Shown here: piece by piece, positions 1 through 53,625 of the stretch
Layout of the letters: every line of letters starts with the position of its first letter
Numbering within the stretch: the first letter of the stretch is position 1
Source: a virus
IMG/VR virus record: IMGVR_UViG_3300045988_102159
Location: 78,631 to 142,630 of that record
Strand: one strand, 5' to 3'
DNA: 64,000 nt
Made by a program: the position numbers and the translations under genes
The notes under the pieces: generated by a model
What the model was told of the DNA's origin: nothing
The model's input: only the letters and a program-made list of their open reading frames with translations
Database searches by the model: none

Positions 1-2743
1 TCTTAGATTTATTAACAAAATCACTCTTATTCAATCCGTCTTCTGCGGCACTAGCCATATTGTCAATAATGGTTTTTGCATTAGCAATATTTTCGTCATT
101 TAAGTAATCCTGAGCATCAGAAACATGTTGTTTTGCTTCATCTAGCTTTGACTTTGTATGTTCATACATAACATCGTCTTTGCTCATGCTATTAAGTTTT
201 TTCTGATACTTATCTACTTCTTTTTGAGCTTTAGCAGATGCTTCTGTAACATTACCGATTTTCTCTTGGATAGATAATCCGCTAGTATCTTGACCAATCC
301 AATTTGTAGTTAAACCAGCCTGATTGCTTAAAAAGTCATTCTCAAATGCAATTCTAGCGGCATTATTAACAAAAGGCGTATAAGTAGAAGCTCCTTTATC
401 TAGTGCAGTTAAAGCTTGCTTACCTTGTGACGCGGCTAATTCTTTAGATGCCGTACTAGCTTTACTAATTTTTTCGGCTAAAGTATCAAAGTCTCCTGAA
501 TTTTCAAGCGCCTTACCACCCGCGATGTCAAGAGAATCAATTAGATTATCAGTAGCACTCTTTAATTCATCAGTAACTTCCCCAGTTTGCTTATACGAAG
601 CATATGCCGCATCAAAGGAAGAGGTATCAACAGATGCCATCTGTTGAGTATTTGTATATGTCTCAACTTGTTTGTCTCTTTCAGCTTGATTTTTTTGATG
701 AAGAAAATTGAGCAAAGCGCCACCAGCGGTAGCGATTCCAATAGTTGCCATACCAAGAGGACTACTTAAACCTTCGATAAGCGCTTTAAATACTTGAAGA
801 CCAGCAGATGCAATTTTTGCTCCTGCACCAAAAGCCTTAAACTTAATAGTAGTTGCTGTAAGTCCATTCGCAAAAGAGCCAAGTTGCATTGAATCTAATG
901 CTGTTTGCATTTTTGCAACTTCATTTGTTTTAATGGATGCAAAAAGGTTTCCAAAATCTAACTTTGATGCTTCTTTAAGCTCAATAAAACTAGAAATCAA
1001 CTGTGGAACAGTCATAGAAAGATTCATTATAGTCTGTTCAACTTTTTCTCCAGTAGTTAAATCAGCATTTGCCCATATAGAACCTAAGTTTTGGAAAGAT
1101 TGCCAAGCAAAACTAAGTTGCCCAATAGCAGCTGTAGCTTGAACAATATTTTGTACGTCCATTTGCTTTTTCAGCGTATCTTCAAGACCTTCGTTTTGAC
1201 CTATAACTCCTCCAAGTACAGCATGTGCGCCAGTAACTTTTTGATTTTTACGGGTCAAATCGCCAGCTGAACCTACAGCAACACGACTTTTAACTGATGG
1301 ATTATTTGCTTTATCTAAAGCCCCTTCTGCTGTTTGGTAAACTTCATTCAAATATTCTTGAAGTTCATCTATTAAACCTAAACCTTCACCTAAATTATCA
1401 GAATTTAAACCATTCTTTTTACCATTAGCAAGTATTGAAAGTTGACGTAATACTTTAATAACTTTATAAATCGGCTGTAAACATTCAGTAGCTTGTTCAT
1501 CTAACACTGCAAAAATAGAATCTTTTCCTGCAATATTAGTTTCAGTTATACCGTAGGCTTTAAGTAACTTTTTAGTATCATTATATATAATTCGTAAGCT
1601 TGACCGACCATCTGTAGCAATTTTTGTATTGTCAGAATCAGCACCAAGTGCAGCAATTTTATCACGATGTTTTGGAATGGTTACTGAACTAATACCAGAA
1701 GATTCATTTGCAATTCCTTGGAGTCTTTGCTTTGCTTCGTTGGAAGAAATATTTTTATATAAATCTTCTCTGCCAGCATTTACATTGTTATAATACTCTT
1801 GAGTACCTCTTGCTTGAAGGACTCCATTTTCGTCTCTTAAAAGCTGAATATATTCTTTATATTCACCAGTTGCCGCGCCAATAGCCATATTAGTTTCATT
1901 AACGGATTCACGAAGTTTGGCTTCTGCATCAGTAACGCCATTAATTGCGTGGCTTGTGTCAATAAGTAGTTTATTATATTGTGTTTGCTGTTCATTGCTC
2001 ATGACTGATTGGTAATTTGTTCCAACATCAATCATATTTTTCAACGGGTCTAAAGACTTATCGTCAATCTTTTGATAACCCATTGCGTTAAGTTTTTCTT
2101 TTCTTACTTTGGCATTATTTTCTTTAATCTGCCCAAGTGAGAAATTCTGTGCCATCGCTGTTAAACCATGTGCTATCTGTTTACTAAATACTCTTGAAGC
2201 AGTAGCACCAAACAAAGTTAGTGCGGCAGAACCGCCACCAATAGAATCTATCAATTTCTGCATTAAATCTAATGCAGTAGATAATCCATCAATGAATCCA
2301 TAAAAATCAGAAGAATTGCCAAGACTATTGATAATACCTTCAAAAGTAGTCTGTAATTTATTTAATTTTCCTTGTAATGAATCAACATACTTTTCATTCA
2401 TTACATCTAGCGTACCGCTAGCATTTTCAGAACCAGCCTTATATTGATTATATAAGTCTGAACGATTCATCAATGCTTCAAAACGTGTAAGCTGGAATTT
2501 ACCAGCAAGCGTTTGACCTACGGCAGCTTTTTGCGTAGCATCAATAGAATCCCAAACTTTCATAAGGTCTTCCATGATGTTACCAACACCACGCATCTTT
2601 CCATCGCCGTCTGTGACTTGTACACCAATTTTCTCTAATGTGGATGTGACTTTTCCTAAGTCTACTCCGTCGTCTAGAGTCTTACCCATTGATAGGTCTG
2701 AAAAGCGTGCATAAAGTGTCTTTAATCCATTACCGATTTGTTC
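1..2743 (-). CDS. tail tape measure protein, exon 2 (3' end beyond window)
   Basis: Minus frame is open from 2743 to the window edge. It starts EQIGNGLKTLYARFSDL...GKMRGVGNIMEDL, a typical TMP motif. It joins in frame to exon 1 at 3110. Confidence 0.75.
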
Positions 2744-3109
2744 CTTGTGTCTTAAACTCGGTCGTTAATCGAGTCCATATATAAATCCTATATGCTTCTC
2801 GTTTCCAAGAAGAAGAGACTATATTTTCTATAAAAATAGAACATTCTTTCGGATAGACTTCTATCCTATCAGAGCCAATCCTGATAGTCGTTGAACCTTT
2901 TACTAAATAGCAAAGTGGCTGCGGATTATCCAATTTTTATATCTTTTTACTATACCTAAGACATTACTCTTCGCCAATATTATATCACTATAATATTTTA
3001 GTAATATAAAACTCTAAGGATTTTCCCGCAATTTAATATTTTTCTTATAATTTAAATTATAAGCCCAATATTTTCACTTATATATTTTAAGCAACAAGTA
3101 AAATCTTTT
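2744..3109 (-). mobile_element. group I intron (td-like, no ORF) in tape measure gene
   Basis: Minus-strand cores are AAATTGCGGGAAAATCC, GATAATCCGCAGCC, GGTTCAACGACTATC and AAATATAGTCTC. The element starts after a U and ends in G. All three frames are closed across it. Confidence 0.7.
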
Positions 3110-4078
3110 AGGGGCTTCTCGCGTAACGGATTCAATTGTCGCAATCTGGGCGTTTAATTGGTCTGTAGAAACTCCAAGCGTAGCTGCCGCTGATGCAGCT
3201 TTCTGGGATGCTTCTGCCAACTCTCCAACATCCGCAGCAGAAATATTTGCTACGTTAGCCCAAGAGTCTAGTGCAGCATTAAGTTTATCAATATTATTAT
3301 CAAGACCATAAGCATTCATGTATGCTGTGATTTGGTCCGACGTTGTAGCAGTGTCTTGTTGAGAGGCATTAGCTAATTTAGTTGACATCTCCGCAAGCTG
3401 CTGAGATTTGTTTAGGTCAAAACCTTGCTGGCCGAAGATAAGGGTACTATTCGTCATAGCAACAGTTGTAGAGCCAAGAGCCTTTGCAGCTTCATTAGCC
3501 TGCTTAGCATACTGAACCATCGAGTCACGTGAATAGTCAGTAACAAGCATAATTTGTGTCAGCGAATCATCAAGGTCTTTTGCATATTCAACAGATTGAC
3601 GAATAGAATCAGTAACGCCGTTAAAGGCGCTTGACATAATACCCCAACGGACTGTGTTGCCCATTGTGTTAAATAATTTATCTACCATTGAGCTGGTACT
3701 TTTGATACCAGTATCAATTTTACCCAATTGAGCAAGAACGTCTGTAAAGGCAATTTTACCAGTAGACTCTGCCATAGAAAATGAATTTTGCAGATTACGT
3801 AATGAAAGTCCACTCTCATTTAGCTGGCTAGTCAACTTTGTCATATCGAGCATTCCAATTTTAGTGTTAAAGCTCGAATTTAATGCTTTCTGAAATTTTT
3901 GAATATTGTTGATAGCCGCAGAAGCTTGCGTATTATCAATAATATCCCGAGACTGCATTTCCTTTAGCTGAACAGAAACTTTATTAAGCTCAGTCTGTAA
4001 TTGAGTCAAACCAGAACGGTCTAATGTAGTTCGTAGATTATACTCAATAGTATTTGAATATTTACTAATGGTAATCAC
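3110..4078 (-). CDS. tail tape measure protein, exon 1
   Basis: GTG start at 4078. The ORF-track frame 3074..4078 is coiled-coil and Q/S/A-rich. The exon is taken to end ...ATIESVTREAP at 3110, before the intron core. Confidence 0.7.
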
Positions 4079-4150
4079 CTACCTTATATTTATCTGTACG
4101 ATTCATAATCGTACCTCCTTTTATATCTTTATTAACGTTAATATAGGCAT

Positions 4151-4185
4151 AAAAAAAAGAGCCTACTTTATATAAAAGTAGGCTC
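4151..4185 (-). terminator. intrinsic terminator
   Basis: A ~10-bp stem (GAGCCTACTT / AAGTAGGCTC) is followed by a T8 run on the minus strand. Confidence 0.7.
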
Positions 4186-4207
4186 ATAATGATTATTGAA
4201 TTTTGTA

Positions 4208-4858
4208 CTAAAGCTCGAACAGAGGACCTTCCTCTTGTTCGCTATCTTCTTTAACCTCTTTATTTTCTGTTGGTACGGCAGAAAGATAATCAGTAGCAGC
4301 TTTAATTGCATCATTGACTTGTTCAGGAGTTGCCATAGCCTTAACTTTAACTTTCTCCTTTAATTTACTTTCATCCTTTGGTGTATTATTCATACCCCAC
4401 TTGTCAGCAATTTCAAGAACTGTCTTAGCATCACTTTCACTAAAAGCATCTTTAAAACGATTTACAGTAGACTCTACAATATCGCCACTAAAAGTTTGAA
4501 ATGTAGAGAAAATACCACGAGCAGATTGTAGATATTTAATATAATCATCAAGCCATACGCTACCAATACGACCAAGAGCATCCATATCTACCGCAAAGTT
4601 TTTATTCATATCTTCGATAGTGCCATCAGCCAGAAGAGCATCCCAAGCATCTAAAATATTATTTGAAACCATGCGGCCAACCTCTTCCTTACGGTCAGGA
4701 TATAGAATAATCGCCGCATACGCATATAGCGCACGTTCAAAAACAAACTGATTGACAAAGCCATTATCCTCGGCAGACTGTGCCGCAAAATGGATAATGT
4801 CATACATGTCTTGAGAGGTTAGCTTTTTAGCCGTCTCTGTTTCAAAAAGAATTGCCAT
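4208..4858 (-). CDS. hypothetical protein (tail-assembly-chaperone position, acidic C-terminus)
   Basis: 216-aa ORF directly upstream of the tape measure gene. Confidence 0.6.
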   Translation of the reverse strand: MAILFETETAKKLTSQDMYDIIHFAAQSAEDNGFVNQFVFERALYAYAAIILYPDRKEEVGRMVSNNILDAWDALLADGTIEDMNKNFAVDMDALGRIGSVWLDDYIKYLQSARGIFSTFQTFSGDIVESTVNRFKDAFSESDAKTVLEIADKWGMNNTPKDESKLKEKVKVKAMATPEQVNDAIKAATDYLSAVPTENKEVKEDSEQEEGPLFEL

Positions 4859-6545: not shown

Positions 6546-6688
6546 AGCTTATTTAGCTACAGACCTCTTTAGCTTAGAAACACTGGGAGTAGTCTCAGCT
6601 CCTGAAGTCTTAGTAGTCGAATCAACTGCGTTAGCAGTTACGTCTGAATGTTGTTCATCAGCCGCAGATTCAGTTGACGTTGCGGCCT

Positions 6689-6894
6689 TTATTCCCCCGC
6701 TGCTTCTGAGAAGACAGACTTAGAATACCAACTATCTACATCGGAATCCTTTGTGCGGCCATCGTGACCAAGGACATCCTTATTCTTGTAGTTGTGGGTC
6801 GTATCAGTCTTATCAACAACCTGTAGCGTAGCCATAACCTTCTTCTTCTTGTTGAACTTGGTGTAGGCAGGCATACAGTCAATAGTGAATGTAA
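6689..6894 (-). CDS. major tail/tube-like structural protein, exon 5
   Basis: Starts TT ACA TTC right after the intron terminal G at 6895. It completes codon T|TT from exon 4 and reads FTFTIDCMPAYTKFNKKKK...AAGE stop. Confidence 0.7.
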
Positions 6895-7151
6895 CATTAT
6901 GTTATCTTATAGTTTCCTATAAGTTCAGACTATATCTTCACCTCTAATAATAGAGGGTTTTCCACTTCGCTTTGTTATAAAGCTACTCCATAAAGGATAG
7001 TCGTTGAACGTACTCGTTCGCTGCTGATTACCAGTTAAGGCTTCCAGCAATTCAAAAAAGATTTTACAACGCATCGCTGCGCAGGTACCCGAACATCACT
7101 TTAAAAGACTACTAACAGACCAATTAAAGACTAATAGCAGACATTCTAGAC
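6895..7151 (-). mobile_element. group I intron 4 of structural gene
   Basis: The P1 helix pairs exon GTACCU with the internal guide GGGTAC, including a G.U pair at the splice site. Cores are TTGAATTGCTGGAAGCC, GTAATCAGCAGC, GTTCAACGACTATCC and AGATATAGTCTG. It ends ...ATAATG. Confidence 0.75.
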
Positions 7152-7777
7152 AGGTACTTGGATCGCCATTGTTCGCCATAGAGAACGTAAAGTTACTCTG
7201 GATTTTACCACGAGGAATGACGAATTCGGCAGGAAGGTCTACGCCAGTCTCTTCATCACGGAAAAGTGTAGACGCTTCAATGTAATAGTAACCAGCGAAG
7301 TTCTCAGCATCAATCTGCATCTCATAGGCTTCATCGTAATGAACCTCATAGCAGTCAATGCGGACGGTATCGCCAGCCTTTACAGCGGCATCTTGCTTGC
7401 TATCGCCGGGTTCATCGGCGGCAAGCTGGAAAGCGATAGTTTTACCTTCGGCTTGAATCTCACCATGATCGCCAAGGGTGGCGGCAGCTAGGGTCTTGCC
7501 ATCATTGATAACAAAGACCTGCTTGTCGGTGACAGCAGAAAGGTAATTAGCTTGAGCACCAGCACTATCAAGAGTAACAGGATAGATAGGAGCTTCTTTT
7601 GTAACGATGATAGTCGCGCCATTGCGGTCTTCATCGGTTAACTTGGCGATAATCTTATCGCCAGAGGTTTCGGCAACCATATCATATGTAGCATGGACAT
7701 AGATAGGAGTCTTATTTTCACCAGTTTTCTTACCGTGTACTAGACCAGCACCAGACAGCATAGCGAAACTGGTAGGA
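7152..7777 (-). CDS. major tail/tube-like structural protein, exon 4
   Basis: Uses the frame of ORF 7096..7782 from (L)PTSFAMLSGAG to ...NNGDPST. The ORF-track tail CLECLLLVFNW... is intron read-through. Confidence 0.75.
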
Positions 7778-8028
7778 CTCATTAGAGAGTCTTCAAGAGT
7801 GCTTTTTAAACATATATACTTTCATATATAAACAGACTATATCTTATCTTTCGATTTTCTCACTTCCTTGCTTACAGCAAGTACACCTATACAGGTTAGT
7901 CGTTGAACCATTTTATTTGGCTGCGGATTGTCTAATTCTTATGGATTATTACTATAAAATAGTACCATAAAACTCTAAAGAGGTTCCCGCAATTCAAGAA
8001 ATTTAATGACCCCCACATTTGTTAATTA
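7778..8028 (-). mobile_element. group I intron 3 of structural gene
   Basis: The P1 helix pairs exon GACCCU with the internal guide GGGGTC, including a G.U pair. Cores are TTGAATTGCGGGAACCTCTTTAGAG, TAGACAATCCGCAGCC, GGTTCAACGACTAACC and AGATATAGTCTG. The terminal G is at 7778. Confidence 0.75.
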
Positions 8029-8047
8029 AGGGTCAGAGTCTTTTCAC
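8029..8047 (-). CDS. major tail/tube-like structural protein, exon 3 (micro-exon, 19-21 nt)
   Basis: This is the only open frame between two intron cores: (G)GT GAA AAG ACT CTG ACC CT = GEKTLT. The 5' boundary is ambiguous by 2 nt. Confidence 0.55.
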
Positions 8048-8256
8048 CACATTTGTATTATCTGTATCTTTATATATACATACAGCTTAGACTATATCTT
8101 TATTCTTTTAGAATATCTTGCACTTCGGATTGTAGCATCCTACACCTTAAAGGTTAGTCGTTGAACTTTACTAAAAGTCTTAGCTGCGGATTCCCCTCGA
8201 AAGGGCTTTCCCGCAATTCACAAAATTTATTTCATTCTTAATGGTATACAAGCATT
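8048..8256 (-). mobile_element. group I intron 2 of structural gene
   Basis: The P1 helix is CTTAATG / CATTAAG. Cores are GTGAATTGCGGGAAAGCCC, GAATCCGCAGC, GTTCAACGACTAACC and AGATATAGTCTAAG. Boundaries are +/-2 nt. Confidence 0.65.
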
Positions 8257-8305
8257 AAGCGGCCTGAGCAGTGAAGAAACTTTCCCAGGCGATTAGACGA
8301 GGATT
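8257..8305 (-). CDS. major tail/tube-like structural protein, exon 2
   Basis: Reads NPRLIAWESFFTAQAA and continues exon 1 (...YAQGGKG|NPRLIAWE). It is preceded by the intron terminal G at 8306. Confidence 0.65.
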
Positions 8306-9046
8306 CATAATATTCTAAATAGGTCGTTACTCTATTTATTGTTTACACAACTATATATTGCTATATAGATTAGACTATATCTTATGCTAGATTACTAACA
8401 TTTTCCTATTTCAAGCTACTTAGCTTTACTTCCTTGCGGAATAGTCGTTGAACTTTATTGAGTTATCCACCTATAACCTCCTGTAGTATGACGTTTACCG
8501 CTACAAACAAGGCTAATTTTGCTAACACTACAACCTGTCTGACGATGCGCTTCTGACATACTTTTAAATTCACCAATAACATTTCCATTTAAATCAAGTT
8601 GGTAAACAGGAATCTCTGGATAACTTCCACTATTTACTTTATGCTGAACATAGCTATCATTCTTTTGACGAATAACCCAACGTAAATTTGTCAAATTATT
8701 GTCATCTCGAATTTCGTTTATATGATGACATTCCTCTCCTTCTAATGGAGGGCGAAGAAAAGTCTCAAGAACCAAACGATGAATACGCCAATGTTTATAA
8801 GTGTTATTCTCTGTATTATATAACTTTACATACTGGTATCCATCTTTGTCATATTGAGGTTTCAACATACGTTTAGTTGAAACAGTTCTAATTTCACCAT
8901 GTTCATTTACCTCATAATAAGGAAAATCTTTTACAACTTTCCACATAAATAGCGCTCCAATCTTAGATGCTGATTGTCTTATAATACTTATATTATATCA
9001 TAAGAGTTTCCAGCAGTCAAGGAAATTTTACAAGAGCAATCTATTT
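8306..9046 (-). mobile_element. group I intron 1 of structural gene, carrying an HNH homing endonuclease ORF
   Basis: Cores are CCTTGACTGCTGGAAACTC, GACAATCAGCATC, [ORF], GTTCAACGACTATTCC and AGATATAGTCTAATC. It starts after GGU and ends ...ATTATG. Confidence 0.75.
8455..8946 (-). CDS. HNH (HNH_3/NUMOD4-type) homing endonuclease, intron-encoded
   Basis: Motifs FPYYEVNEHGEI, HRLV..F, CHHINEIRDDNNLTNLRW and a C-terminal IENR-like GGYRW. It has its own GGAG RBS inside the intron. Confidence 0.8.
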   Translation of the reverse strand: MWKVVKDFPYYEVNEHGEIRTVSTKRMLKPQYDKDGYQYVKLYNTENNTYKHWRIHRLVLETFLRPPLEGEECHHINEIRDDNNLTNLRWVIRQKNDSYVQHKVNSGSYPEIPVYQLDLNGNVIGEFKSMSEAHRQTGCSVSKISLVCSGKRHTTGGYRWITQ

Positions 9047-9220
9047 ACCCTTGCCTCCTTGTGCATAAACAGTAGTAGCAGCACCCTCAAGGCTAGAAGT
9101 CTTGGCAGTATCAATGTAAAGCATAGGCTGACCAGCATCGAAGTGCTGACCACCAAGGTCTACGGATGTTAGTGGCTTGAAGACCACATCACAAATCTCG
9201 CGCACACCAAAACGATTCAT
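9047..9220 (-). CDS. major tail/tube-like structural protein, exon 1
   Basis: ATG at 9220 with GGAGAAA RBS. It reads MNRFGVREICDVVFKPL...TTVYAQGGKG (58 codons), then hits a stop inside the intron. Confidence 0.7.
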
Positions 9221-9328
9221 AGATTTCTCCTTACGTTTAGGAATTTGTATACAGTTTCCTTAGTCATAGAAACATAACGCGCTAATTTCTATGTCTATTA
9301 TATAAACGCGGCAAAACCACGATTATAC

Positions 9329-10099
9329 TCAGTAAATACCATCCATCCAATTATCAGGTTCATCCATCTTACTAACATCCATCATTGGAGTAGTAGCAAC
9401 TTTCTGATATAAGTCGTATGCCATTTTAAGTGTATACCTCTTAATACTGTCAAACAACTGAAATGGAGTATAGTTATATATGACATTAATATCAATTGCC
9501 AAACCAATAGAAAGAGCAGAAGCATAATTACCAAATATACTATTAGCTTTTTTCTTGTCTTTATCGCTCTTTATCTGATTTCGTATTTCTCGACCACGTT
9601 GAAGTTTGGCCGCAATCTCGGCAGCTGCGTCATTAGCAGGGTTAAATTCTTCTTCATACTTATCAGTGCCTACTGGTAAAAACAACTCTTTCAATGTAAT
9701 TCTGAAATTTTCAAAATTCATAGGATTAAGTTGCCCTACTATTGGCCCACTCTCCTGTACCCTAAAATTAATGCACCCAGCGTCATATTCAACTATATAA
9801 TCAGGGAAAATAAGGCCAAAAAGATTATCTACATTTCTTTTTGTATTTTCGTCCTGTTGGATGATTACTAATAATATTTGAAAATCGTCCATATACCCTA
9901 ATTGACTTTTGCCCACGTTTTTCATTTCTGCGGCAAGTTCTTTTGCCTTGACAAAAAGCTCAACGGACATAAGAAACGAATCTTCACCAAAAGCGCAAAT
10001 ATCTTTAATAGACGGCTGCGAGATAGCAATATTAGCTCCCGCAACCGTCACTGGCATTCCAGAAAGATATTTACCTAAATCTCCTTGTAACTCTGACAT
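9329..10099 (-). CDS. hypothetical structural protein
   Basis: 256-aa ORF packed in the late operon. Confidence 0.65.
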   Translation of the reverse strand: MSELQGDLGKYLSGMPVTVAGANIAISQPSIKDICAFGEDSFLMSVELFVKAKELAAEMKNVGKSQLGYMDDFQILLVIIQQDENTKRNVDNLFGLIFPDYIVEYDAGCINFRVQESGPIVGQLNPMNFENFRITLKELFLPVGTDKYEEEFNPANDAAAEIAAKLQRGREIRNQIKSDKDKKKANSIFGNYASALSIGLAIDINVIYNYTPFQLFDSIKRYTLKMAYDLYQKVATTPMMDVSKMDEPDNWMDGIY

Positions 10100-52428: not shown

Positions 52429-52497
52429 TTGGAGCGGCAAGACTCGAACTTGCGACACGTTGAGTTAATAATATTCTACCAACTGAATTACACTCCA
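52429..52497 (-). ncRNA. tRNA-like element lacking an anticodon stem
   Basis: Acceptor is TGGAGTG/CGCTCCA. D-arm is ATTC-AGTTGGTA-GAAT and T-arm is GCAAG-TTCGAGT-CTTGC. The 19 nt in between cannot pair. Flanks extend the acceptor helix to ~14 bp. Confidence 0.45.
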
Positions 52498-53538: not shown

Positions 53539-53556
53539 GTAATTTTTTTAACAGGC

Positions 53557-53625
53557 TGGCTCTTTCTGTGCTGCCCAGAAATTTTATGATTCAGAGTCAT
53601 ATGTTCTACTGTTGAACTAAGAGCC
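53557..53625 (-). tRNA. tRNA-Gln (CTG), non-canonical elbow
   Basis: Hand-folded. Acceptor is GGCTCTT/AAGAGCC. D-arm is GTTC-AACAGTA-GAAC, anticodon arm is TATGA-CTCTGAA-TCATA, and T-arm is TTCTG-GGCAGCA-CAGAA. No CCA is encoded. Confidence 0.55.

Follow-up and report, generated by a model that had tools for sequence, protein, structure and literature searches.

The window analysed here is a 64,000-nucleotide (nt) stretch of a viral genome (IMG/VR record IMGVR_UViG_3300045988_102159, positions 78,631 to 142,630), and its minus strand encodes, at 6689-9220, a tail tube gene of 1074 nt, or 357 amino acids (aa), whose coding sequence (CDS) is interrupted after nt 174, 197, 218 and 868. The interruptions are read as four group I introns, very probably removed at the junctions given below. 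The evidence lies in the DNA-level boundaries of the introns, in their ribozyme cores, in the complementarity and covariation of the guide-sequence helices P1 and P10, in the family of the endonuclease that one of them encodes, and in the purifying selection seen on the exons. A preliminary description of the same DNA had proposed a structural gene of about 1.07 kb with five exons and four group I introns, and this architecture is borne out by covariance-model matches, an intronless allele, collinear homologs and P1/P10 covariation; two of its eight junctions were misplaced.

Exons, introns and the intronless allele

The exon boundaries were fixed by the intronless allele L004, the contig of P0001, which is an uninterrupted 357-aa homolog in the same gene order. 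Comparison of the window with L004 by blastn gives collinear blocks at 9300-9045, 8305-8283 (23 nt, 100%), 7800-7160 and 6894-6605, and L004 breaks exactly at the junctions listed here. The whole window was also scanned, as the preliminary description had suggested for this locus, with the Rfam group I intron model (Intron_gpI, RF00028; gathering score 50 bits), and three introns reach the gathering level.

9047-9220, minus strand: exon 1, 174 nt, codons 1-58, ending GGC AAG GGU (blastn to L004; tblastn 100% over aa 1-58)
8306-9046, minus strand: intron 1 at site B (CDS nt 174), 741 nt long, an IA2-like group I intron whose P6 loop holds an HNH gene; absent from L004
8283-8305, minus strand: exon 2, a 23-nt micro-exon (AAUCCUCGUCUAAUCGCCUGGGA), 100% identical to L004 4175-4197, the match stopping at 8283
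8050-8282, minus strand: intron 2 at site C (CDS nt 197), 233 nt long, IA2-like, without an open reading frame (ORF); boundaries from L004; Rfam match 8286-8068 (minus), 80.1 bits, E=1e-18
8029-8049, minus strand: exon 3, a 21-nt micro-exon (UGGUGAAAAGACUCUGACCCU; window sequence TGGTGAAAAGACTCTGACCCT), corresponding to L004 TGGTGAGAAGACTCTTACCTT
7802-8028, minus strand: intron 3 at site D (CDS nt 218), 227 nt long, IA2-like, ORF-less; Rfam match 8038-7813 (minus), 61.0 bits, E=5e-13
7152-7801, minus strand: exon 4, 650 nt (blastn to L004 92.7%; tblastn 97% over aa 71-289)
6895-7151, minus strand: intron 4 at site G (CDS nt 868), 257 nt long, IA2-like, ORF-less; absent from L004 and L005; Rfam match 7137-6906 (minus), 76.1 bits, E=2e-17
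6689-6894, minus strand: exon 5, 206 nt including the stop codon (blastn to L004 94.5%; tblastn 100% over aa 291-357)

The ligated junctions predicted from this map are as follows.

Exon 1 to exon 2: GGU joined to AAU (GGCAAGGGT followed by AATCCTCG)
Exon 2 to exon 3: GGGA joined to UGG (CGCCTGGGA followed by TGGTGAAAAG)
Exon 3 to exon 4: CCCU joined to CAC (CTGACCCT followed by CACTCTTGAAG)
Exon 4 to exon 5: ACCU joined to UUA (AGTACCT followed by TTACATTC)

The resulting product contains ...IAWDGEKTLTLTLEDSLMSPTSF... and ...GDPSTFTFTID..., with IAWDGEK as the predicted peptide across the junction of exons 2 and 3 and DPSTFTFTIDCMPAYTK as a further predicted peptide. The spliced translation of exon 2 agrees with the homologs, exon 3 encodes (D)GEKTLT(L), the same in all of them, and uninterrupted homologs, including distant ones such as that of Enterococcus phage VRE9_2, span every junction, which is the full-length collinearity that the preliminary description had expected.

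The intervals first proposed for removal also leave an open frame of 357 codons, a result that we reproduced and that arises because three length errors (-26, +2 and +24 nt) cancel. In that version, exon 2 would measure 49 nt and end in GCCGCUU (the 5' site of intron 2 lying between 8257 and 8256, not between 8283 and 8282), exon 3 would measure 19 nt, exon 4 would start at 7777 (the 3' site of intron 3 lying between 7778 and 7777, not between 7802 and 7801) and the product would read ...WESFFTAQAACEKTLTLPTSF...; the open frame speaks for these junctions, as does the fact that, at the two disputed sites, they follow U and end in G. They are nonetheless highly improbable, given that all 12 of the 12 aligned homologs, among them the 95%-identical P0001 and the distant VRE9_2 protein, read ...W[DE]G[ED]KT.T....E[DE].L.S..SF... 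across the micro-exon region, that exon 2 can be matched to the DNA of L004 no further than 8283, and that coding sequence for TLEDSLMS, which the homologs read, lies directly upstream of the exon 4 start proposed at first, setting the 3' boundary of intron 3 together with L004. Moreover, P1 (GCCUGGG/CUCAGGC) and P10 helices covary at the junctions listed above. Sixteen residues of the protein first predicted were thus wrong, exon 2 has 23 nt, and from the range of 19-21 nt given for exon 3 only the upper value stands.

The corrected CDS differs from L004 at 89 nt, corresponding to 79 synonymous and five nonsynonymous codon changes, so that five of the 357 residues differ from the intronless product. 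Such a ratio clearly indicates purifying selection, and hence a gene that is used in spite of its interruptions and has to be spliced at the junctions listed. It also bears on the possibility of a dead or decaying gene copy with insertions that are never removed, or of an assembly artefact, for which it can be said that gene callers see only fragments at this locus; against it stand, besides the excess of synonymous changes, the four intact ribozyme cores, the neighbour order shared with relatives, the lack of a second tube gene adjoining the locus and the recurrence of the same architecture in independent assemblies, all of which make such an origin very improbable.

The assignment to the tail tube (major tail) genes of the YomU_Tube family is made on sequence grounds, because the spliced product matches phrog_2729 (virion structural protein, E=6e-44), the precomputed annotation of P0001 and of the L004 product, both uninterrupted homologs, includes PF27173 (YomU_Tube), and the neighbours are conserved. 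Searches of the tube protein against local copies of Pfam and of the PDB gave no match, the Pfam copy lacking PF27173 and hence yielding no direct score for the window protein. A Shine-Dalgarno sequence (GGAG) stands upstream of the ATG. Further upstream are genes of YomW/phrog_6123 (10723-10112) and of phrog_4051 (10099-9329), while a 508-aa ORF, a 216-aa ORF and the tape-measure gene follow downstream; the order phrog_6123/YomW, phrog_4051 and tube gene recurs in Enterococcus phage VRE9_2 as well as in relatives known from metagenomes. In place of this essential virion gene, automatic annotation yields an endonuclease and three fragments of 59, 228 and 61 aa, and databases will therefore miss or truncate the tube protein both in this phage and in its relatives; several truncated cluster representatives among the homologs look like such exon fragments.

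Ribozyme cores, guide pairings and the splice site of intron 2

The group I core motifs UGC[GU]GG, UC[CA]GCA, GUUCAACGACUA and AGAUAUAGUCU are present as four sets on the minus strand between 6.6 and 9.3 kb, where the preliminary description had placed them. Elements P3, P4-P5, P6, P7, P8 and P9 are found in all four introns, and intron 1 folds into P4-P5, P7, P7.1, P7.2, P8 and P9. The extra hairpins P7.1 and P7.2, which the Rfam model treats as an insertion, lie between the 5' strand of P7 and P3' in each of the four introns. These two hairpins mark subgroup IA, and the introns are accordingly assigned to subgroup IA, IA2-like. Intron 4 has a 60-nt L1 loop and a P2 closed by a GCGA tetraloop. 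In a multiple alignment the four introns share about 50-63% identity in pairs, so that they are four different introns of one type, not recent duplicates; gap-lenient global pairwise identities are uninformative, with a background of 70-80%, above which rise only the comparisons of intron 2 with the site-C introns of the related loci L023 (96%) and L035 (86%).

The pairings of the internal guide sequences with the exons were checked by script and are given below (exon/guide), with the exon base at position -1 of the 5' splice site.

Intron 1: P1 CAAGGGU/GCUCUUG; P10 AAUC/GAUU; U at -1 (U.G pair)
Intron 2: P1 GCCUGGG/CUCAGGC; P10 UGGUGAA/UUCACUG; A at -1, facing a guide G
Intron 3: P1 GACCCU/GGGGUC; P10 CAC/GUG; U at -1 (U.G pair)
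Intron 4: P1 GUACCU/GGGUAC; P10 ACAU/AUGU; U at -1 (U.G pair)

The P1 helices of introns 3 and 4 are those reported at first. Each micro-exon has separate segments for its two neighbours, the 5' end of exon 2 being the P10 partner of intron 1 and its 3' end the P1 partner of intron 2, and the 5' end of exon 3 being the P10 partner of intron 2 and its 3' end the P1 partner of intron 3, with no overlap in either case. The earlier statement that every intron follows a U and ends in G holds in its second part, the last base being G (omega-G) in all four introns (8306, 8050, 7802 and 6895), and fails in its first part at intron 2, whose corrected 5' splice site follows an A that faces a G of the guide sequence.

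At that site, the boundary reads GGGA, then AAGU...AAAUG, then UGGU, compared with GGGAUGGU in the intronless allele, and there are no shared bases that would allow the junction to shift. An A at -1 is present in all five diverged introns at site C, which form 7-bp P1 helices with compensatory changes:

Window and L023: exon GCCUGGG, guide CUCAGGC
L019 and L037: exon GCUUGGG, guide CUCAAGC
L035: exon GGCUGGG, guide CCCAGCC
L176: exon GGCUGGG, guide CUCAGCC
L177: exon GCAUGGG, guide CUCAUGA

In these five introns, the G directly 5' of the guide faces A(-1) and can also pair with the U or C at position +1 of the downstream exon. In an invariant Asp/Glu codon, this A occupies the second position, which is never U; a U at -1 is therefore unavailable here, and an intron at site C would have to tolerate A. 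Placing the 5' splice site of intron 2 after GCCU or AAGU, or assuming an omega-U, in order to regain a U.G wobble was rejected, with stop codons, frameshifts or an intron end other than G as the outcome.

A different solution would be to move intron 2 by one codon, with the 5' site after GCCUGGG (between 8284 and 8283) and the 3' site after 8048, giving W-G-E-K and a 356-aa protein without D66. Such a shift would stay in frame, replace A(-1) by a G-C cleavage-site pair, still end the intron in G in the window and in L035, and leave a P10 of GUGAA/UUCAC. It is unlikely, since Asp or Glu follows W65 in every homolog and the flanking A and U/C-G rebuild GAU or GAC, varying at the synonymous position only, as exon sequence does; a G-C pair at the cleavage site is also no more canonical than A. 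With the junction kept after GGGA, the site-C introns, including intron 2, might be natural group I ribozymes whose cleavage follows an adenosine that is either unpaired or in an A-G mismatch, in place of the near-universal U.G wobble, a proposal that we put forward tentatively and rate at slightly less than an even chance. A literature search for natural 5' splice sites other than U returned engineering studies only; an 18-nt exon-2 pattern searched in IMG/VR gave mostly chance matches and no new site-C lineage, and a longer degenerate pattern added some site-C lineages from metagenomes.

Intron 1 is the only one of the four introns to carry an endonuclease gene, and the HNH_3 ORF noticed there at first is confirmed:

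8946-8455, minus strand: HNH endonuclease ORF in intron 1, 163 aa; PF07463, PF13392, PF07453; phrog_59

Its domains are arranged in the order NUMOD4, HNH_3 and NUMOD1/I-HmuI-like, PF22083 is weak, and it matches I-HmuI (PDB 1U3E) with E=1e-10, features of an I-HmuI-type HNH homing endonuclease of predicted activity. The ORF occupies the P6 loop, between P6 and the J6/7-P7 strand, and its stop codon falls just before the GUUCAACGACUA strand.

In the mechanism that we propose, the late transcript would fold into four independent ribozymes, each excising itself, so that a correct messenger RNA (mRNA) would need four events. Each internal guide sequence would pair with the last 6-7 exon bases as P1 and in this way find the 5' splice site, two guanosine-initiated transesterifications would remove the intron, and P10 would align the downstream exon; the micro-exons of 23 and 21 nt would be just long enough to serve in P10 and P1 without overlap. 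In a mixed infection, the I-HmuI-like enzyme would presumably nick or cut intronless alleles, leading to homing by recombinational repair. Introns 2 and 3 would normally be co-converted with intron 1, the sole enzyme-encoding intron of the gene, because they lie only 23 and 44 exon bases away. The activity and target of the enzyme and the co-conversion are deduced here from sequence features and gene arrangement.

Several points weigh against this reading. Splicing itself is one that we infer, the evidence being at the level of DNA. Intron 1 remains under the Rfam gathering score (41 versus 50 bits), with P7-P3'-P8-P9 matched at 8605-8351 (E=7e-9 in a local search, 5e-7 window-wide) and a weak P4-P6 match at 9015-8926 in E-value mode; the low score arises because the 492-nt endonuclease ORF splits the core, and a match of 41 bits is far beyond chance. 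The Rfam gathering threshold misses every endonuclease-bearing intron, for which E-value mode is needed. Exon skipping, documented for the 23-nt exon of Staphylococcus phage Twort orf142 (PMC10136302) and for phage SIOphi (PMC11878797), could lower the yield of correct mRNA; by arithmetic, skipping of exon 3 would remove GEKTLTL in frame, and skipping of exon 2, or of exons 2 and 3, would shift the frame. Finally, intron 2 lacks the near-universal U at -1, an A opposite G is expected to be a poor substrate in model ribozymes, and in an engineering study of the Anabaena intron a pyrimidine (Y) was required at -1 (PMC12355055). The 5' splice site of intron 2 is the main point of doubt in the reading.

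Intron sites in related phages and comparison with known systems

Insertion sites were mapped from 74 IMG/VR loci and from a metagenome scan. The tube gene is interrupted in 16 of the 74 loci, and L004 and most close IMG/VR relatives are uninterrupted. At least 10 insertion sites fall into two hot spots, with zero to five introns per allele, and the peptides at both hot spots, VYAQGGKGNPRLIAWDGEKTLT and GDPSTFTF, are the best conserved ones.

Site Z: CDS nt 26, not in the window
Site A: CDS nt 165, not in the window
Site B: CDS nt 174, window intron 1
Site C: CDS nt 197, window intron 2
Site C': CDS nt 201, not in the window
Site C2: CDS nt 204, not in the window
Site D: CDS nt 218, window intron 3
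Site E: CDS nt 855, not in the window
Site F: CDS nt 864, not in the window
Site G: CDS nt 868, window intron 4

Compensatory changes in the pairings were found for P1 at sites C, F and G and for P10 at site D, where L023 and L037 covary with their exons; at site G, the P1 of L176 and that of L213 change in step with the exon. The variants at sites F, G and D are (exon/guide):

Site F, P1: CCAUCU/GGAUGG, CCCUCU/GGAGGG, CCAAGU/GCUUGG
Site G, P1: GUACCU/GGGUAC, CCACCU/GGGUGG, CGACAU/GUGUCG
Site D, P10: CAC/GUG, CAGUC/GACUG, AAC/GUU

Introns at site A are located at 3115 in L005, 2163 in L018, 3145 in L025, 2164 in L026 and 1393 in L037. Their cleavage-site pair is U.G in L005 (exon GGU, guide GCCC) and C.A in the other four (exon GGC, guide ACCC), so the wobble-type pair is kept while the third base of a Gly codon changes. 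The replacement of U.G by C.A is the isosteric wobble exchange described for the cleavage-site pair of the Tetrahymena ribozyme.

Most sites are seen both with and without an endonuclease gene (the site-B intron of L023, for example, is ORF-less and scores 70 bits), a mixture to be expected if endonuclease genes are gained and decay in cycles, and introns of L024 and L037 contain truncated ORFs. Enzymes of the HNH_3 type occur at sites A, B, C, E and F, and site D holds a long Cys-rich protein without a Pfam match. The site-D introns of L023 (1764-2900) and L031 (2008-2920) encode such proteins of 378 and 303 aa, which have repeated Cys-rich motifs and a C-terminal PLPFDFAI...ELNG...H segment, with no match in Pfam; they resemble homing endonucleases with a CapR-like plus an EDxHD/Vsr-like part (PMC12350094).

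The window represents one allele of a heavily colonised gene, and it is not the extreme one. Four introns are present in L037 (A, C, D and E) and in L177, where all are ORF-less and above the Rfam gathering score. L213 (locus 7077-9872, on a human gut contig) has five, at Z, B, C, D and G, and hardly differs from the window in the region of intron 1, exon 2 and intron 2. Five are also present in L176 (locus 1338-4310), at Z, B, C, E and G, where the spliced frame is open through every junction and a 13-nt exon, GACCCAUCCACCU (GACCCATCCACCT), separates intron E (CDS nt 855) from intron G (nt 868). The site-Z intron of L213 and L176, after nt 26, is undetected by Rfam at E<1e-3 and carries the P7-like motifs GAGACUA and GAGAUAGUCC. 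The trio B-C-D recurs in the independent assemblies L023, L202 and L213, consistent with joint travel by co-conversion.

The novelty claimed at first was overstated, in view of the five-intron relatives and of published cases. The gene orf142 of phage Twort, a tail tube gene (PMC11878797), contains three group I introns (IA2) with a 23-nt exon between two of them (PMC10136302), and the window resembles it in the kind of gene, in having several IA2-type introns in one short structural gene and in the 23-nt exon. The window differs in having four introns, two consecutive micro-exons (23 and 21 nt), one HNH-bearing intron and one 5' splice site after A, and its tube is of the siphovirus YomU type, unlike the myovirus tube of Twort. 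In the crAss-like Zeta-group phage cMAG OLRF01000054, the major capsid gene is in five fragments with four intervening segments, three of which encode group I-type domains, and genomes of that group hold up to 14 introns (PMC7886860). Both are structural genes of gut phages split into five, but the gene, the phage lineage and the presumed host phylum differ, and the capsid case was built on endonuclease domains and ORF fragments, whereas the tube gene case is built on ribozyme models, an intronless allele and guide covariation. Genes for DNA polymerase and terminase in Bastillevirinae have up to three introns each (PMC11878797), likewise of the IA type and many with phrog_59 HNH/NUMOD4/I-HmuI-like endonucleases; in contrast to these DNA-metabolism and packaging genes, the host here is a virion structural gene, with four introns (five in relatives). 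The DNA polymerase intron of SPO1/SP82 carries I-HmuI, which the ORF of window intron 1 resembles and with which it shares the order of NUMOD4, HNH and a NUMOD-like C-terminal domain; the host gene and the target sequence differ.

Four introns in one phage gene are therefore at the upper end of reports and a dense example of a known phenomenon, and the new elements are the phage clade and gene family concerned, two micro-exons in a row, a view of at least 10 sites across the population and the non-U splice site. The set would be among the densest of self-splicing introns in a phage gene, with three ribozymes packed into 44 coding bases of a late gene of high expression. The window and its relatives form a natural series in which to ask how splice sites of adjacent group I introns are kept apart, how introns lacking an endonuclease hitch-hike with a neighbour and whether a non-U 5' splice site can function; if cleavage after A is real, the tube gene of this phage clade would be a natural test bed for splice-site choice, splicing order, exon skipping and joint homing of tightly packed ribozymes.

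The phage and other features of the window

The phage is a large siphovirus-like one of roughly 100-150 kb, associated with gut Firmicutes, the nearest sequences coming from human and animal gut metagenomes and from Firmicutes bins of metagenome-assembled genomes. A near-identity DNA search yielded nothing beyond a chance match of 34 nt to Yersinia phage phiR1-37, and thus no close isolate in the collection searched.

Just past the stop codon of the tube gene (about 6550-6697, minus strand), GCGGGGGAATAA precedes the stop and the -1 frame is open for 48 codons (GIKAATSTES...SVSKLKRSVAK). Of 13 relatives open to this check, 11 keep the feature and L024 and L030 lack it; L035 has a textbook G_GGA_AAA heptamer and a 50-codon extension. 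A programmed -1 frameshift may yield a longer tube protein. A short distance downstream of the tube gene, sub-gathering matches to mir-1255 were found in L023 (4039-4108) and L037 (4927-4996, on both strands), which most likely reflect a hairpin or terminator-like inverted repeat and not a microRNA.

At least two further introns are predicted in the window. Relative to intronless L004, the tape-measure gene has an insertion of about 367 nt that coincides with a sub-gathering Intron_gpI match and is read as a fifth group I intron, and a sixth probably splits the gene that directly precedes the portal gene on its upstream side, where it lies between two ORFs (21419-20922 and 20751-19327) that match consecutive parts of phrog_15503 (positions 32-125 and 131-214).

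2744-3110, minus strand: insertion in the tape-measure gene; Intron_gpI match 3085-2795, 41.2 bits
20752-20954, minus strand: Intron_gpI match in the split phrog_15503 gene, 47.2 bits

Three transfer RNA (tRNA) genes are also present, two of which reach the gathering score; the third was seen only in the E-value scan, yet at 43.4 bits it also exceeds that score.

52429-52497, minus strand: tRNA gene
53556-53626, minus strand: tRNA gene
53748-53818, minus strand: tRNA gene

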